A stretch of DNA of 40,979 nt from a virus (IMGVR_UViG_2675903468_000003:1-40979), one strand, 5' to 3'. Positions 1 to 40,979 are shown, counted from the stretch's first letter. The notes: a model not told the origin generated them from the sequence alone. Program-made: numbers and translations.

Positions 1-1158
1 ATGCTCACCGTTAAGCAGATTGAAGCAGCAAAGCCGAAAGAAAAACCATACCGCCTACTCGATGGTAATGGCCTGTACCTTTATGTCCCTGTGTCAGGGA
101 AAAAGGTATGGCAGCTTCGCTACAAGATTGACGGTAAGGAGAAAATCCTGACCGTAGGAAAATATCCGCTAATGACTTTGCAGGAGGCAAGAGATAAAGC
201 ATGGACCGCGAGGAAAGACATCTCGGTTGGCATCGATCCGGTAAAAGCGAAAAAGGCTTCGTCTAACAACAATTCCTTTAGTGCGATTTACAAGGAATGG
301 TACGAGCACAAGAAGCAAGTCTGGTCAGTAGGCTATGCAACTGAACTTGCAAAAATGTTTGATGACGACATTTTACCTATCATCGGCGGCCTTGAAATTC
401 AGGATATTGAGCCGATGCAACTTCTTGAAGTAATCCGCAGATTTGAAGATCGCGGTGCAATGGAGAGAGCCAACAAAGCCCGCAGAAGATGCGGCGAGGT
501 TTTCCGTTACGCTATTGTCACCGGCAGGGCTAAATATAACCCAGCACCTGACCTTGCTGACGCCATGAAGGGATACCGCAAGAAGAACTTCCCGTTTCTT
601 CCTGCAGACCAGATCCCGGCATTCAACAAAGCACTGGCAACATTTTCAGGAAGTATCGTATCGCTCATTGCAACCAAAGTTTTACGCTACACAGCCCTCA
701 GAACAAAAGAACTTCGTTCCATGCTATGGAAGAACGTCGATTTTGAAAACAGGATTATCACTATCGACGCCAGTGTGATGAAGGGACGCAAGATTCATGT
801 GGTCCCGATGTCAGACCAGGTGGTTGAACTTCTCACTACGCTAAGCTCAATCACCAAACCAGTCTCAGAGTTTGTTTTTGCCGGTCGCAACGATAAGAAG
901 AAGCCAATTTGCGAGAACGCTGTACTACTTGTGATCAAACAAATCGGCTATGAAGGTCTGGAAAGCGGTCACGGATTCAGGCATGAATTCAGCACGATTA
1001 TGAACGAGCACGAATGGCCTGCTGACGCTATTGAAGTGCAACTGGCACATGCCAACGGCGGATCTGTGCGTGGGATTTACAACCATGCTCAGTATCTCGA
1101 TAAGCGCAGAGAAATGATGCAGTGGTGGGCGGATTATCTCGATGAGAGGGTGGCATAG
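1..1158 (+). CDS. int: Tyrosine integrase, P4/IntS-like
   Basis: 385 aa. N-terminus MLTVKQIEAAKPKEKPYRLLDGNGLYLYV and C-terminal HGFRHEFSTIMNEHEW...QLAHANGGSVRGIYNHAQY are typical of P4-family integrases; recalled as close to E. coli IntS. Confidence 0.9.
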   Translation: MLTVKQIEAAKPKEKPYRLLDGNGLYLYVPVSGKKVWQLRYKIDGKEKILTVGKYPLMTLQEARDKAWTARKDISVGIDPVKAKKASSNNNSFSAIYKEWYEHKKQVWSVGYATELAKMFDDDILPIIGGLEIQDIEPMQLLEVIRRFEDRGAMERANKARRRCGEVFRYAIVTGRAKYNPAPDLADAMKGYRKKNFPFLPADQIPAFNKALATFSGSIVSLIATKVLRYTALRTKELRSMLWKNVDFENRIITIDASVMKGRKIHVVPMSDQVVELLTTLSSITKPVSEFVFAGRNDKKKPICENAVLLVIKQIGYEGLESGHGFRHEFSTIMNEHEWPADAIEVQLAHANGGSVRGIYNHAQYLDKRREMMQWWADYLDERVA

Positions 1159-1561
1159 CGCCACCTATAAACCGTGCAATAATCAAACTCACATGCGCAT
1201 CGTTGATGATGTATGTGATCACCCCAAACACTGGCGAAGTCACATTGTAGTCACCCGTTGAGTCTGGCATCTCTTCACGCTTACCGTTCTCCTGATTAAC
1301 CAGGTGAGGTTTTGGGTGAATTCGGTAACGCTTTATCCTTAACTCATCACCTATCCTGCAAACAAGCAGATAGCCATCACATGGCTTAAGTGAGCTATCC
1401 ACGACCAGCAAGGCACCATTCTGGATGCCTTCTCGCCAGTATGTTTGCCCTGCTCTCATAAAGTATGTAGATGCTGGATGTTCAACGAATTTTTCATCAA
1501 GCGACATGCTTCGCTCTACGTAGTCTGCTGCTGGTGATGGGAATGCCATGATGAATGCCAT
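1028..1561 (-). CDS. UmuD'-like (S24 LexA/UmuD fold) protein, degenerate; C-terminal extension antisense to int
   Basis: Starts aligned to UmuD about residue 25 (FPSPAADYVE is an exact match; HPASTYF and VFGVI blocks follow), so the RecA-cleavage site is absent. The nucleophile motif GDSM reads GQTY by my alignment. Homology ends near 1180 but the frame stays open to 1028, overlapping the int 3' end. May be a pseudogene. Confidence 0.5.
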   Translation of the reverse strand: MAFIMAFPSPAADYVERSMSLDEKFVEHPASTYFMRAGQTYWREGIQNGALLVVDSSLKPCDGYLLVCRIGDELRIKRYRIHPKPHLVNQENGKREEMPDSTGDYNVTSPVFGVITYIINDAHVSLIIARFIGGAMPPSHRDNPPTTASFLCAYRDTEHGCKSHAQIRRWHVPVALQ

Positions 1562-1566
1562 GCCGA

Positions 1567-1586
1567 TGCTGTTTATACATACAGTA
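1567..1586. promoter_or_regulatory. LexA (SOS) box upstream of the UmuD'-like ORF
   Basis: tgCTGTttatacatACAGta matches the CTGT-N8-ACAG consensus, about 6 nt upstream of the ORF start codon. Confidence 0.6.
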
Positions 1587-1707
1587 TTTATTCATTATGG
1601 ATACAGATCAAGCCCGCCGAAATAGACAGTTACTAACTTCTTGTTTTATTTTAGTATATAGTTATAAGTATGGATATGTACTGAACTCATAGACCGCGTT
1701 GTCGGTT

Positions 1708-2859
1708 ATGGATGTTCTTGATGGTATACTGGTTCTGATAACTATAACTTTGAGGGTTCAGTGCGTGGACAAAGTATTATCGATTCACTACTTACGAGGT
1801 TTGGCGGCACTTGCTGTTGTTGCATTTCATCTTAGACCACTTATTGATAACGTTTATGCACAAAAAAATCTTGGGCAATTACTTTTTTCGCATGGTGATT
1901 TCGGTGTTGATTTATTTTTCATAATAAGTGGTTTTATTATAACGTTAGCTACATCAAATGTGTCTCAAAATTATATTAGTGATTTTATAATAAAAAGGAC
2001 TTTTAGAATATACCCAGTACTAATTATTGGATTGGTTGGTATTTTCTTTCTCATGCCTAATGAGGATTTTTCAAATATTATTCGATCAGCCATACCTTTA
2101 CATTTGGACTACTCTAGGGAAGCGCCATACTTTGGGTATAATTCATTGATAACAGCTTGGACATTAACCTATGAATTATACTTTTACTTCATATTTTTAG
2201 TTGCGATGTTTGTTTCACACAAATATAGAGCTTATATCTGCTCTGCTATTTTGGTGTTACTTGTATTGATATCACAATTATATTTCAATGGTTCTGTCAA
2301 TTTTTCAGGTAATGCTATAGCAAAAATTGATAATTCTTCTTATATGATGGCTTTGATAAAATTCTCATCATCACCGATGTTGCTTGAATTTGTCGTCGGG
2401 ATGATGCTGTATGAGTTTCGAAAGGTTATAATACGCGTACCTTTCGCAAATATAATATCATTTTCATTAGTTGCGTTTGTAATTTGTTCTTTCTTCTCAG
2501 GGTATAAATCATCGCATGGTCCATTGAATTATGGAATTTGGGGGCTTTCATTATTAATAGCGGCATTAGTATATGACTCAAAAAATGGAATAAAAGATAA
2601 TAAGGCATTATCATTTTTAGGCGATATTTCTTATTCGCTTTATATATCGCATGTTCTTGTGATAAAATTCTTTATGCTCCATTTCACAACGTTCCCGTTA
2701 TACTCATCGACATCTGGATTTTCAAAATTCTTATTTTTAATGTTTACATCATTAATTATTTCTTATTTTATGTTTGTTTTTATTGAGAAACCATTTATAA
2801 AATTAGGTAGAAAGGCAATTTCTTCATCATATTTTGTTAAAATGAGAGTCGCAAGCTAA
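1708..2859 (+). CDS. Acyltransferase family 3 integral membrane protein (O-antigen/LPS acyltransferase-like moron)
   Basis: Multi-TM protein with LRGLAALAVVAFH and FGVDLFFIISGF motifs. Visibly AT-rich compared with neighbours. Sits between int and tailspike, where serotype-conversion genes occur in P22/Sf6-type phages. Track ORF begins at a TTG (1699); the first ATG is 1708. Confidence 0.8.
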   Translation: MDVLDGILVLITITLRVQCVDKVLSIHYLRGLAALAVVAFHLRPLIDNVYAQKNLGQLLFSHGDFGVDLFFIISGFIITLATSNVSQNYISDFIIKRTFRIYPVLIIGLVGIFFLMPNEDFSNIIRSAIPLHLDYSREAPYFGYNSLITAWTLTYELYFYFIFLVAMFVSHKYRAYICSAILVLLVLISQLYFNGSVNFSGNAIAKIDNSSYMMALIKFSSSPMLLEFVVGMMLYEFRKVIIRVPFANIISFSLVAFVICSFFSGYKSSHGPLNYGIWGLSLLIAALVYDSKNGIKDNKALSFLGDISYSLYISHVLVIKFFMLHFTTFPLYSSTSGFSKFLFLMFTSLIISYFMFVFIEKPFIKLGRKAISSSYFVKMRVAS

Positions 2860-2910
2860 TGAAGTAATACTTGATGTGCGGCATGTATTGTATACATACC
2901 GCACTTTCAT

Positions 2911-4935
2911 TTAGATTATGCAAACCTCAATCTCTGCCATCGCTGTGTGTGTCGAGCTAATTGCAGCCATGTCAATTGAAACTCGCATACCTCCTGCACC
3001 TGCAGCTGATCGTGATATTGTGAATGAACCGCTACGCCCACCATGATTTTGATGAATAACAACTGGTGTAGATGTTGTCACATTCATAAACTTGATATCA
3101 CATGTTGTCTGATCTCGCCCGTTTGCAGCCACTGTTGGTATGCTAAGCATGTTATATTTCACATAACACTGATGCCCGGCAGGCACAATAAAGAATCCTG
3201 CGTTAGTTACAGTCGTACCGTTAACGCGTGCGCTAATAGTAATCTTTCCATCTTCATGGAACCCATTATAACCAGCCCAGGCTGATGATATTTTAGAGTC
3301 AGGTACTGGCCCAAGAGTTTCACCAGTAGCAGAGTAAGAATTGCTTGAACTGAATATGAATTGACGAGAGTCAAATTCACCAGCACCAGAAGGTGCGACA
3401 ACTTTTAAAACCTCATTCACGGTTTGATTAAAACTGTTTCCTTCGATAAGCAAAGGAAATGCAAATCCTCCAGTCAAAACAGTGGTTGATTTAGAGACTA
3501 AGATAGCTACAGTATTCATTAGGAACCAGTTTCCAGATATGGTTTTTGCACATTCTGATGCCGGGTTTGTTACTGTGGATGGTATCAGGATGGTTAATCC
3601 AACTGGATTTTTTTCAACGGTATTACCAACGAAACTGAGTGTGACATTATAGCCGAACACAGCCCCTTGCACGGTGTTTTCTGATATTGTACATCCATGT
3701 ATTGTCTGGCTTCCGGCGTGGCCGGTTGCGCTTAATATGATACCTGACTTGTTCAGCACGAATTCACATCCAAAAAATCTATTTTGGTCTGAGTAACCAA
3801 AACCTAAACTATTACGATCTATTCTTACACCCACACCACACCATAGGGCACGTACTCCTATGAAATTATTCAGATAAACAGAACCGCGAAGAGTGAATGC
3901 GTGATCAAAATATCTAACATGTATATTTTCGAAAGAACACTCCCTAACATGATAATCTCCACCATTTACTGTTTCATCAACACTGAATGCATATCCAGCC
4001 CAGTCCGTTGATACATTGCTTACCCCTTCTAACATGATGTCCCGGATGACAACTCCGGTTATCCCGTAGGTAAATCTGAAACCGTCATAGGTCGGCACTA
4101 AAACGAAACCGTTAACCCCGACAGGAAATTTTAGACATGGCATTTGGCGAGCAGACACTGCAGATCCGCCATTGCCAGTGATTTTTATTGGTTTGCTGAT
4201 TATCAGTGGTGCTGTAAGATTGTAATATAAAGGTGGCGTTTGTACCGTTAGCGAACCGCCCCATGGGGTTGCATCGATAGCAGACTGAAAACCAGTTGTG
4301 TCATCATCTGTACCATTACCACTGGTGAACCAAACGGTTTTTATCTCATCGCCAATCTGTCGTTTCCATCTTTTTCCAGAAGCATCTACCAGTACAGTCC
4401 CACCGTTATCAGGTGTTGATGTGTCTGAAGCGTCAAGAAAAAACCAACCCTCACCCCCATCATTGTCATGTTCTCTTCCTACGCATTTTATTTGCGTTCC
4501 AGAAACGTTAGATGCCCTTATTTGTTCATAAGTCGCCCCAACAATATAAGACTCACCATCAACTGCTGCTAATTTGTCTATGAATGCTAGCAATGCCTGA
4601 TCAGGGTCATACTTCAGCACATTTGGGAATTTGAACTGCTGTGCACCATACGCATCATATACAGCCATAGAATGGCCTTGCACAGTTACGAATTTGGCAA
4701 TCTGTCCGTTATATACAGGGTAACCAGCGGCGTTAATGATGATTGGCTGCGAAACAGGAACGTGAGAACCGTCTTCATTCTCCACATAAACCTGAATCTG
4801 GTTTTCAGGATTTACCGGGTCAGTGTTAATTTTACCGATATAAATTTTGCCATTGGCAACCGCTTTAAAAGAACGCGCCATAGTGAAAAGTTGCGAAGGC
4901 ATGCTTACCACAACATTTGCGGTGATATCTGACAT
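2911..4935 (-). CDS. Tailspike protein (P22 gp9-like head-binding N-domain plus beta-helix receptor-binding domain)
   Basis: [59 protein letters not shown] matches the P22 tailspike N-terminal domain. Start trimmed from track ORF start 4983 to the MSDITA methionine. Confidence 0.85.
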
Positions 4936-32991: not shown

Positions 32992-33315
32992 ATGGAAGCA
33001 TTAGTAGTAGAGCGAAGCGAGGATGGCTACTGGACGCACCCAGAATACGCCAACCTGTTTGGGGATAGAGAGGCAATTTCAGCTGATGAGTTCAGATCTT
33101 TCTGCAAGCAGCATGGCATTGAATCATCAATTGTTGAAATGGAAAACGACAACAATCAAACGGTAATTGACGCGTATTTTGAAGATGGGAATCCAAACAT
33201 CAGTGGATGGGAGCCAAGCATGCCAGATGGAGAAGGATGGTTTGTCGGTTCGATTCACGATACAGAAGACGGTCCGATCTGCGTTTGGTTCAGAAATGTA
33301 GATAAGGCCGCATAG
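32992..33315 (+). CDS. Acidic hypothetical protein (107 aa)
   Basis: GAGGTGAG RBS; no recognised domain. Confidence 0.5.
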   Translation: MEALVVERSEDGYWTHPEYANLFGDREAISADEFRSFCKQHGIESSIVEMENDNNQTVIDAYFEDGNPNISGWEPSMPDGEGWFVGSIHDTEDGPICVWFRNVDKAA

Positions 33316-39228: not shown

Positions 39229-39506
39229 TGGACTCCTTCGCGAAATATACGATCATTGACTGGATAGCATTCCTTCAGGTTTTGCTAATCTGGTTTTATA
39301 TGGCTTACAGGAGTGGACAGTGGATTGTCAGTGAAGCCTGTAGCAAGGGATGGCGTTGGTGGAACCGAAAGAATAAAAAAGCACTGGCATTGGATTCGTT
39401 TTACGAAGCATTCAATCTTAACAGTCTTCAGCCAGGTTCTGTCATTGTAGTCACCACTCAAAGCGGCATGACCATTCAGATTCATAAACCAAAAGAGGAG
39501 AAATGA
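39228..39506 (+). CDS. Hypothetical protein with one predicted TM helix (92 aa)
   Basis: GGAGGTGAAG RBS; hydrophobic segment IIDWIAFLQVLLIWFYMAY. Start trimmed from the track ORF. Confidence 0.45.
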   Translation: MDSFAKYTIIDWIAFLQVLLIWFYMAYRSGQWIVSEACSKGWRWWNRKNKKALALDSFYEAFNLNSLQPGSVIVVTTQSGMTIQIHKPKEEK

Positions 39507-39592
39507 TGTGGCCTATATGTGTTAATTGCGGACGGATGTGCCTATCTGGATGGTGCCGAAAGTGCGACAAATGCACGAAGAAAAGACAATAA
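39503..39592 (+). CDS. Cys-rich micro-ORF (29 aa)
   Basis: Self-derived MMWPICVNCGRMCLSGWCRKCDKCTKKRQ with AAAGAGGAGAA RBS; start overlaps the upstream stop. Confidence 0.25.
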   Translation: MMWPICVNCGRMCLSGWCRKCDKCTKKRQ

Positions 39593-39664
39593 CAATCCTC
39601 GCATTCGCGGGGATTTCTTTTATCTGAACTCGCTACGGCGGGTTTTGTTTTATGGAGATGATAA

Positions 39665-39832
39665 ATGCACTTCCGAGTCACAGGTGAATGGAATGGAGAG
39701 CCATTCGACAGGGTTATCGAAGCAGAGGACATCAACGACTGCTATAACCACTGGATGATATGGGCGCAGATAGCGCATGCAGACGTAACCAATATTCGAA
39801 TTGAAGAACTGAAAGAACACCAAGACGCCTGA
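39665..39832 (+). CDS. Small hypothetical protein (55 aa)
   Basis: Self-derived MHFRVTGEWNGEPFDRVIEAEDINDCYNHWMIWAQIAHADVTNIRIEELKEHQDA with GGAGATG RBS-like sequence; followed by a weak hairpin and T-run. Confidence 0.35.
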   Translation: MHFRVTGEWNGEPFDRVIEAEDINDCYNHWMIWAQIAHADVTNIRIEELKEHQDA

Positions 39833-39850
39833 TGGCGGTTTTTTATTGCC

Positions 39851-39867
39851 TGATTTGCAGGTTCGAT
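39851..39867 (+). other. tRNA-Arg (argW-like) T-arm fragment
   Basis: ATTTGCAGGTTCGATTCC matches the argW segment AATTGCAGGTTCGATTCC (from memory) and then diverges. Not a complete tRNA. Confidence 0.4.
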
Positions 39868-39889
39868 TCCCTATTCGGAGATAGCACTC

Positions 39890-40090
39890 ATGCAACACGA
39901 ACTACAACCTGATTCACTGGTTGATTTGAAATTCATCATGGCCGATACTGGCTTTGGTAAAACCTTCATCTATGACCGGATTAAGTCCGGAGACCTGCCT
40001 AAAGCCAAAGTTATCCACGGGCGAGCACGATGGTTATATCGTGACCATTGTGAATTCAAAAATAAGCTCTTAAGCCGCGCTAATGGGTAA
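39890..40090 (+). CDS. AlpA/Xis-type DNA-binding protein (candidate excisionase)
   Basis: 66 aa MQHELQPDSLVDLKFIMADTGFGKTFIYDRIKSGDLPKAKVIHGRARWLYRDHCEFKNKL; AlpA/Vis-family HTH pattern; last phage-like gene before the att motif. Confidence 0.7.
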   Translation: MQHELQPDSLVDLKFIMADTGFGKTFIYDRIKSGDLPKAKVIHGRARWLYRDHCEFKNKLLSRANG

Positions 40091-40166
40091 AATAGCGGGT
40101 AAAATATTTCTCACATCTAAAAAACACCATTCCAATCAATCCCCTGCCGCCTCAAGTAGATGTCTG

Positions 40167-40180
40167 CAGGGGACACCAGA
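40167..40180 (+). other. Putative attR core (3' end of argW-like tRNA-Arg)
   Basis: TGCAGGGGACACCA equals the acceptor-stem 3' strand plus CCA of argW as recalled. Follows the AlpA-like gene, at the far end from int. Confidence 0.45.
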
Positions 40181-40566
40181 TACCCTTCAAACGAAATCTA
40201 CCTTCACCCCGTAAAAGATGGGTTTGGCAGCACACTTGCCTTATATCTACTCATTTTTACTGCAACAGGTTGAAATCTCAGCACTGTCAGAAAGCGCTGA
40301 TGACTAAACAGCCCTGGGCCGGGCGATGTAACCATCACACAGAATCCTGATAGCGAAATATGGCGTGACTCGATACTTCACTCCGCAATGCATTCCTTGA
40401 TGAATTCGCAGGACCGTGATACACGGGACAGGTCACTGAATGACGACAATGTCCTGGAAATCAGCGAACCGCGCATCTGAAGTACATTTGAGCGACTGTA
40501 CCAGAACATGAATGAGGCGTTTGGATTAGGCGATTATTAGCAGGGCTAAGCATTTTACTATTATTA

Positions 40567-40610
40567 TTTTCCGGTTGAGGGATATAGAGCTATCGACAAC
40601 AACCGGAAAA
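40567..40610. repeat. Perfect 11-bp inverted repeat with about 21-nt spacer
   Basis: TTTTCCGGTTG ... CAACCGGAAAA, immediately beyond the stop of the terminal minus-strand ORF. No U-tract. Confidence 0.4.
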
Positions 40611-40619
40611 AGTTTACGT

Positions 40620-40979
40620 CTATATTGCTGAAGGTACAGGCGTTTCCATAACTATTTGCTCGCGTTTTTTACTCAAGAAGAAAATGCCAAATAGCAACAT
40701 CAGGCAGACAATACCCGAAATTGCGAAGAAAACTGTCTGGTAGCCTGCGTGGTCAAAGAGTATCCCAGTCGGCGTTGAAAGCAGCACAATCCCAAGCGAA
40801 CTGGCAATTTGAAAACCAATCAGAAAGATCGTCGACGACAGGCGCTTATCAAAGTTTGCCACGCTGTATTTGAAGACGGATATGACACAAAGTGGAACCT
40901 CAATGGCATGTAACAACTTCACTAATGAAATAATCCAGGGGTTAACGAACAGCGCGCAGGAAAGGATACGCAACGCCAT
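40620..40979 (-). CDS. LacY-family (oligosaccharide:H+ symporter) permease C-terminal region, probably host flank; possibly partial
   Basis: ...LSTPTGILFDHAGYQTVFFAISGIVCLMLLFGIFFLS resembles the LacY C-terminal TM region. ORF starts at the last base of the window, so the 5' end may lie outside it. Confidence 0.5.
   Translation of the reverse strand: MALRILSCALFVNPWIISLVKLLHAIEVPLCVISVFKYSVANFDKRLSSTIFLIGFQIASSLGIVLLSTPTGILFDHAGYQTVFFAISGIVCLMLLFGIFFLSKKREQIVMETPVPSAI

Follow-up and report, generated by a model that had tools for sequence, protein, structure and literature searches.

The argW-linked recombination module

The window analyzed here is a stretch of viral DNA of 40,979 nucleotides. 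It opens with an integrase gene and ends, beyond an excisionase gene and a tRNA-derived core, in bacterial sequence. The features concerned are the following, with coordinates counted from the first nucleotide.

1..1158, plus strand: intS, tyrosine integrase, 382/384 residues identical to K-12 IntS
39824..39845, plus strand: short GC hairpin followed by a T-run, closing the early-left genes, read from the sequence
39846..39858, plus strand: TTGC-N5-TTGC, the cII-binding site of predicted promoter pI in the HK620 record
39855..39870, plus strand: T-arm piece TTGCAGGTTCGATTCC, argW positions 46-61; member of the family box CAGGTTCGATTYCC
39873..39880, plus strand: second half-site, degenerate ATTCG, 12 bp after the first
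39890..40090, plus strand: torI, recombination directionality factor (excisionase) of 66 aa, 66/66 identical to K-12 TorI
40085-40093 and 40097-40105, plus strand: two direct GGGTAAAAT repeats, putative IntS arm-type sites of the P arm
40164..40178, plus strand: attR core CTGCAGGGGACACCA, displaced argW 3' end; pawZ in K-12
40179..40619, no strand: bacterial right flank (B' side), adjoining argW in 1415 unoccupied genomes
40620..40979, minus strand: 3' portion of cscB, an MFS transporter for sucrose or oligosaccharides, from annotations under matches

Window position 1 is the intS ATG, and the encoded integrase contains the Pfam domains Arm-DNA-bind_3, Phage_int_M and Phage_integrase. The distance from the end of argW to the intS ATG is 161 nt in related genomes; attL and argW are predicted to lie just upstream of position 1. 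After intS, the interval 1160-3000 holds an S24 peptidase/HumD-like ORF on the minus strand and an acyltransferase-like ORF (1699-2859). Among 5426 complete E. coli genomes, none matched window 1-3000 over at least 80% of its length; the best match was 90.8% identical over 1-1585. This interval looks like an uncommon cargo or O-antigen-modification module.

At the other end of the prophage, torI is the last gene before the attR core, with 73 bp between its stop codon and the core, and identical genes carry the RefSeq name torI. The 66-aa product gave no Pfam match, and its assignment rests on identity to the characterized K-12 protein, the recombination directionality factor of prophage KplE1/CPS-53 (PMC2951348). 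A preliminary description of this DNA had taken the gene for alpA-like and proposed, in one of two readings, that it encodes the excisionase, which the 66/66 identity to K-12 TorI bears out. The GGGTAAAAT repeats at its 3' end are kept in 24/24 genome loci and in viral loci, and the same word occurs inverted ahead of intS in HK620 and Sf6. A functional attR of 135 bp, used for in vitro excision, starts at the torI 3' end (PMC3509656), and the attR primers of that study flank the GGGTAAAAT stretch. Their repeat structure suggests that they serve as IntS arm-type sites. The torI stop codon (40088-40090) falls within the first repeat; the last codons of TorI (..NG*) would be constrained by this putative DNA-binding site. 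Across genera, the terminal Gly hardly varies.

The published KplE1 core is a duplicated 16-nt sequence, CTGCAGGGGACACCAT (PMC2951348), which the window core matches in 15/16 bases. In its CTGCAGGGGACACCA(T) form the core is the argW 3' end and sits at the prophage-chromosome junction. In the HK620 and Sf6 records CTGCAGGGGACACCAT lies between the torI homologue and int and carries the annotation of attP core; the earlier claim of an attachment site agrees with the match of 40164-40178 to this core. Strand exchange is predicted from symmetry to occur in TGCAGGG (40165-40171), bracketed by the imperfect inverted repeats GATGTC and GACACC. Excision dependent on TorI and IntS has been demonstrated on KplE1 and HK620 substrates in published work.

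In the best account of this locus, the phage attP, which maps between torI and intS, was recombined by IntS into the argW 3' end. The tRNA gene was thereby restored at attL, immediately before window position 1, and the displaced argW end of 15 nt stayed behind as attR core (40164-40178). The phage's own excisionase gene is torI, last before the core, with the putative IntS arm-type sites around its stop. Nothing in the acceptor piece, torI or the end of the prophage is new to biology, and the module is among the best-characterized non-lambda recombination modules. Panis et al. (2007) reportedly described the KplE1 module with IntS, TorI and attL/attR at argW, and the HK620 and Sf6 attP regions are said to have been treated by Clark (2001) and Casjens (2004).

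argW pieces and the prophage boundary

With argW of K-12 MG1655 as reference (GTCCTCTTAGTTAAATGGATATAACGAGCCCCTCCTAAGGGCTAATTGCAGGTTCGATTCCTGCAGGGGACACCA), TTGCAGGTTCGATTCC at 39855-39870 matched argW 46-61 exactly and CTGCAGGGGACACCA at 40164-40178 matched argW 61-75 exactly, both on the plus strand. The two pieces lie 293 bp apart and tile argW 46-75 in tRNA order, with one base, C61, common to both. Exact argW matches of 16 and 15 nt are expected by chance about 0.001 and 0.005 times in the window, and therefore these matches are not chance. The preliminary description had recognized two consecutive, non-overlapping pieces of the argW 3' end and had worried that the true tRNA sequence might make them vanish. 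Alignment to MG1655 argW keeps both; they are consecutive, but share C61. The strings were rightly read with positions 2-3 bases off: an 18-mer, ATTTGCAGGTTCGATTCC, placed at 39851-39867 is at 39853-39870, its first two bases not belonging to argW, and a 14-mer placed at 40167-40180 is at 40165-40178. As had been said, only one credible gene, torI (39890-40090), lies between the pieces. Looking for both motifs as direct repeats in attL, a check proposed at the time, is uninformative because attL has the whole of argW and both are repeats by construction. ARAGORN found no tRNA gene anywhere in the window, as expected for fragments, and the T-arm piece lacks the 3' half of the T stem after 39870. 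We rejected a tRNA or functional tRNA fragment at this piece, given no ARAGORN call and no T-arm hairpin conserved across relatives.

A synthetic empty site was assembled by joining the 100 nt that precede argW, the tRNA gene and window 40179-40478. Of 5426 complete E. coli genomes, 1415 contain this construct as a single uninterrupted match of 99.8% identity (yfdC-argW joined to 40179 onward). Direct fusion of argW to 40179 onward in these genomes means that the insert ends exactly at 40178. Both torI and the T-arm piece belong to the insert, left of 40178. Of two readings offered earlier, the one that ended the prophage at the acceptor piece holds, with the exact end at 40178 (1415/5426 empty sites) rather than 40180.

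The other reading had the P22-like prophage stop at the T-arm piece, with torI and the acceptor piece left over from an earlier integrant in argW whose core was a different one. It is refuted by the absence of torI from the empty sites, and we regard it as highly improbable. The GenBank record of CUS-3 speaks for it, placing the att cores on the T-arm 16-mer and stopping there. Yet strain S88 has torI and then dsdC after the point matching the CUS-3 end, the CUS-3 attL is merely argW followed by an HK620-type P' arm, and the empty sites contain neither torI nor the T-arm piece. The complete genome records of HK620 and Sf6 include torI, and K-12 KplE1 has the same layout of T-arm piece, torI and core. 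A scan of IMG/VR for GGTTCGATTCCTGCAGGGGACACCA, a contiguous T-arm-to-CCA block, returned no partial block; all of the loci returned (120/120) were full-length argW. There is therefore no evidence of an element using a T-loop core, none being found among these 120 viral loci. The T-arm piece was likewise rejected as a second att site or boundary: torI and the P arm lie to its right in the HK620 and Sf6 genomes and are absent from empty sites.

KplE1 (CPS-53) of K-12 has the identical TorI, an IntS at 99% identity, the same core, a P arm with two copies of GGGTAAAAT at the torI stop, the same T-arm box upstream of torI and the same torI-core order. It is, however, a 10-kb remnant, whereas the window module lies within a full-length P22-like prophage. 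A T follows CCA in KplE1 and the repeat is 16 nt; in the window this base is G (csc-type flank) and the repeat is 15 nt. The attL side of the module here lies outside the window. The K-12 attR copy is annotated as the pseudo-tRNA pawZ. Of such displaced tRNA 3' ends at attR, the piece at 40164-40178 is an exact example; the piece at 39855-39870 is not, and travels inside the phage.

Across 39600-40300 the window is 96-98% identical to the P22-like phages Sf6, HK620, CUS-3 and N7 over the stretches in common. In HK620 (AF335538) and Sf6 (AF547987) the torI homologue (hkaC and gene 18, respectively), attP core and int follow one another without interruption. Where 39600-40178 is matched, identity is 97-98%, and the box is annotated as promoter pI with a cII site. 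The comparison with Sf6-like attP advised earlier confirms that the T-arm piece belongs to this contiguous order in both records. They represent the circular phage form (attP), whereas the window shows attR, the integrated form, in which the core is followed by bacterial flank.

CUS-3 (CP000711) has the same 16-mer (TTGCAGGTTCGATTCC), upstream genes and integrase region. Its record labels the 16-mer 'attL core' and 'attR core' (L001/L002) and stops there, without torI, the P arm or the functional core. Comparison with the window puts the functional core 293 bp further right and torI within the prophage. In E. coli S88, a K1 strain with a CUS-3-like prophage (L032), torI lies at 2707-2907, after the equivalent of the CUS-3 end, and is followed by dsdC. 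The CUS-3 record thus appears to have picked the wrong one of two direct repeats of 15-16 bp. This misplacement omits the excisionase gene and could mislead prophage-boundary tools; across public records the T-arm box is annotated in conflicting ways. A separate record, ON470594 ('Escherichia phage vB_EcoP-683R2', L030), carries cscB, cscK, cscA and cscR beyond the attR core. With chromosomal sucrose genes in a 'complete phage genome', the ends of that record overshoot the prophage.

The gene at the right edge of the window, cscB, is a chromosomal neighbour of argW in csc-positive strains. The sole match of 40179-40640 in blastn against other loci was another E. coli locus. The first ~40 nt of the flank (40179-40215) have weak similarity to P' arms preceding a 404-aa integrase in other genera (L128 and L136). 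In L128 (IMG/VR) a 404-aa P4-type integrase directly follows a KplE1-type attR core, and L194 (IMG/VR) has another P' arm with GTTCG sites after the attR core. Many unrelated P' arms begin directly after CCA. The csc locus may sit on a decayed second argW island. The right flank as a remnant of such an island was set aside as suggestive only, with a single E. coli locus from blastn and a short, weak alignment. Across the loci compared, tandem arrays occur at argW-type tRNA genes in other genera. The T-arm piece in the window is probably not a scar of second integration, and there is no hidden tandem-integration story here. A possible history of this kind, which the preliminary description had seen marked by the piece, has no evidence in it; the piece travels inside the phage genome. 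The main result is a clean-up, by which the finding maps onto a known module.

The T-arm box in the torI leader

The hairpin and T-run at 39824-39845, within which the ORF at 39665-39832 has its stop codon, bound the conserved torI module on the left. With its short stem, the hairpin fell below the threshold of the scan. In the TTGC-N5-TTGC element that follows, the second TTGC is bases 1-4 of the T-arm piece, and homology to the lambda ea8.5-pI region stops at this word (~39858). The first TTGC reads TTAC in K-12 and many E. coli variants; the second is unconserved in other genera. The T-arm piece contains GTTCG at 39861-39865, 29 nt ahead of the torI ATG. The Shine-Dalgarno sequence GGAG (39877-39880) overlaps the degenerate ATTCG half-site. 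Over the ribosome-binding site, this half-site reads ATTCGGAG in the window and GTTCGGAG, GTCCGGAG or ATCGGAG in relatives.

In K-12 KplE1, HK620 and 80 IMG/VR loci, torI is preceded by TGATTTGCAGGTTCGATTCCCTATTCGGAGATAGCACTCATG, and the box is identical in K-12 KplE1, HK620 and CUS-3. The 80 IMG/VR loci fall into three upstream contexts, each with a small hairpin and T-run and then ATTGCCTGATTTGCAGG; found behind three different contexts, the box is therefore part of the torI module. These 80 E. coli loci are near-identical, with divergence too low to gauge constraint on the box. Homologues of torI with 58-100% identity (one truncated copy, 52%) were collected from 24 Enterobacterales genomes and IMG/VR, and their 76 distinct protein/upstream combinations were reduced to 35 non-redundant modules. 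CAGGTTCGATTYCC was present, between differing flanks, in most non-redundant modules of the clade whose TorI starts MQH..LQPDSLVD (at least 74% identity). Outside E. coli, box-bearing modules occur in Enterobacter, Serratia, Citrobacter, Pantoea sp. and Edwardsiella (TorI 74-88% identity). The GTTCG of the box lies at -29 ± 1 from the ATG in 12/17 occurrences and at -26 or -42 in the rest, mostly tandem copies. Two perfect copies stand 16 bp apart in L131 and L132; L134 has two copies, L128 two that are 13 bp apart and L010 three units at 12-13 bp. The box is missing from about half of the 35 non-redundant modules, including the whole Pantoea-type clade (at most 70% identity).

On this comparison, the T-arm piece is best described as a conserved leader box, neither an att site nor a prophage boundary. 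The box looks selected, being kept in diverged modules despite changes in the flanks. It had been called a relic in the P arm, a name that is half right at best: in diverged modules the box is conserved, fixed in position and sometimes tandem.

Several further observations were made in these searches. In L021 (Arsenophonus nasoniae) a lambda-type cII box, TTGCGTGAGATTTGCGTGTAATTG, 60 nt upstream of the torI homologue replaces the T-arm-like box, and different left neighbours evidently give one module different control elements. Two contigs, the 'Actinomycetes bacterium' MAG L011 and the 'Parachlamydiaceae bacterium' MAG L028, have torI modules of enterobacterial type (85-92% identity) and are probably mis-binned or contaminant. 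Within the early region of the window, TTGTCGGTTCGATTCA at 33242-33257, which includes GGTTCGATTC, differs from the T-arm piece at 3 positions; this is probably coincidental, as 0.35 such matches are expected by chance.

Candidate roles of the box

We put the overall reading, that the region is the attR of a P22-like prophage with the KplE1/HK620/Sf6 recombination module in argW and that the box is an operator candidate in the torI leader, at a probability of about 0.85. The assignment of attR, torI and the boundary is shown, with very little doubt. Of the roles considered for the box, a TorI operator is the most likely, and we favor it tentatively, at slightly under even odds.

The attL of KplE1 has five TorI sites with the cores GTTCG, GATCG and GTCCG, and TorI represses PintS, an effect abolished by mutation of I3-I5 (PMC2951348). 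The authors of that study termed PtorI 'non-characterized' (PMC2951348). At the published coordinates, sites I1-I5 read as 8-mers CAGTTCGC, CAGTCCGC, CAGTTCGT, TGGTTCGC and CAGATCGT, with the common form YRG(T/A)(T/C)CGY (PMC2951348). The array of TorI sites in the P' arm is kept in HK620, Sf6, L129 and the distant L166 and L170; the HK620 and Sf6 P' arms have five TorI-type sites each. Upstream of torI, TorI pentamers occur at 0.66 per 50 nt vs 0.13 for background in the same loci, a comparison in which the modules are related and independence is overstated. All are on the plus strand and none on the minus strand. In L129, L130 and L133 the sequence upstream of torI contains CAGTTCG and/or CAGTCCG, the I1 and I2 site types, within CAGTTCGA and/or CAGTCCGG. 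The direct repeats are phased, with the second half-site at +12 in the window and periods of 12-16 bp in L010, L128, L131, L132 and L134. A fixed position, direct repeats with roughly helical spacing and the directionality factor's own word together suggest a TorI operator ahead of torI.

The box 8-mer, AGGTTCGA, has the GTTCG core, but its positions 1 and 8 are unlike those of all five published sites, and the conserved ATTYC extension has no counterpart in the P' arm, where the sites are GTTCGC or GTTCGT. A scan of 39500-40300 found no sigma-70-like promoter, and a sigma-70 promoter at the box was rejected. The 135-bp attR without the box still excises in vitro (PMC3509656), which fits a regulatory role or no role equally. 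As an operator, the box would bind TorI in the gene's own leader and provide autoregulation, and its 3' half, ATTYCC, could also pair with the Shine-Dalgarno sequence. P2 Cox, 186 Apl and P4 Vis, small directionality factors of the winged-helix or HTH type that also serve as repressors, bind direct-repeat arrays at an att arm and a promoter, and in this way excision is coupled to transcription control. TorI resembles Cox, Apl and Vis in that it, too, represses a promoter (PintS; PMC2951348). It differs from Cox and Apl in not being homologous to them, and binding to its own leader is something that we only infer.

The box might instead be an inert fossil, a tRNA-derived scrap that some ancient event (aberrant excision, tandem integration or rearrangement of attP) deposited in the P arm and that has since travelled with torI to no present purpose. 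It is identical to the attB tRNA at 16/16 positions, in the same orientation and in exact tiling with the core, and the match stops in scar-like fashion at C61, just before the predicted overlap TGCAGGG. The family consensus, however, covers only 13 of these 16 bases, the other three being two T's in the lambdoid TTGC word and an E. coli-specific G. Tandem arrays of different elements do occur at argW-type tRNA genes in other genera. The 120 viral loci yielded no element whose identity block runs from T-arm to CCA. The box is also dispensable, being missing in many modules and unneeded for in vitro excision; where it is present, it persists in diverged modules with changed flanks, at a fixed distance from the ATG and with tandem duplication in several lineages. 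We consider a fossil unlikely. Less likely again is a role in a cII/C1-dependent integration promoter, pI, with TTGC-N5-TTGC as the activator site and a start at or after the torI ribosome-binding site, such that Int but not TorI would be made during lysogenisation. The logic parallels that of lambda pI. This role agrees with the HK620 and Sf6 annotations, with lambda ea8.5-pI homology that reaches the second TTGC and with the lambda-type TTGCGTGTAATTG box ahead of the Arsenophonus torI homologue. It accounts for TTGC but not for the conserved AGGTTCGATTCC. The spacing is N5 vs N6 in the lambda cII site, TTAC stands in place of the first TTGC in K-12 and in many variants of E. coli, the second is lost in other genera while GGTTCGATTYC is kept, and no -10/-35 match was found.

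The box could also act at the RNA level, with ATTYCC:GGAGAT pairing that dampens torI translation, or as an attB-type core half-site, TTCGATTCC, bound by IntS. These were given the least weight of the roles considered and appear improbable. RNAalifold predicted the ATTYCC:GGAGAT hairpin in 9/9 diverged leaders, and the T variant of the box gives a perfect stem; the hairpin is nonetheless weak (-3.5 kcal/mol), its covariation term is about zero and no tRNA-like T-arm hairpin is conserved. IntS binding would fit the identity of TTCGATTCC to the argW sequence left of the predicted overlap region and the presence of TTCGATGTA at the matching attP position of relatives, but direct repeats at 12-16 bp misfit a recombinase core, which needs inverted half-sites around the overlap. 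An RNA mimic of the T-arm was rejected on folding the nine diverged leaders, which gave only the weak anti-Shine-Dalgarno stem without covariation. Possibly, a weak hairpin masking the ribosome-binding site overlaps a TorI operator.

A further question is why the family box equals argW 49-61 (13/16 matching bases are consensus). The box may descend from the tRNA T-arm and have been co-opted later, or the word preferred by TorI may simply be T-loop-like. Every module found has an argW-type tRNA with one and the same T-loop as its target, which makes the two possibilities inseparable. We raise, as an unlikely idea, that excisionases of the TorI family read the T-loop word of the target tRNA, GGTTCGATTCC; the box would then be an autoregulatory operator descended from or mimicking the argW T-arm, and the T-arm in argW (attL/attB) would be a sixth TorI site. 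Distances from the T-loop GTTCG to the five known TorI sites in K-12 attL are 31, 51, 94, 104 and 114 bp, all within ~1.5 bp of whole helical turns. Successive intervals from the T-loop to I1 and onward are 31, 20, 43, 10 and 10 bp, each within about 1 bp of whole turns. This helical phasing with the TorI sites is only suggestive. If the idea is true, the excisionase could read the tRNA gene directly when promoting excision or blocking re-integration.

Whether the widespread argW prophages leave the chromosome is decided by torI. The conserved, position-fixed and sometimes tandem GTTCG box in its leader is a concrete candidate for autoregulation, and a modest new lead.
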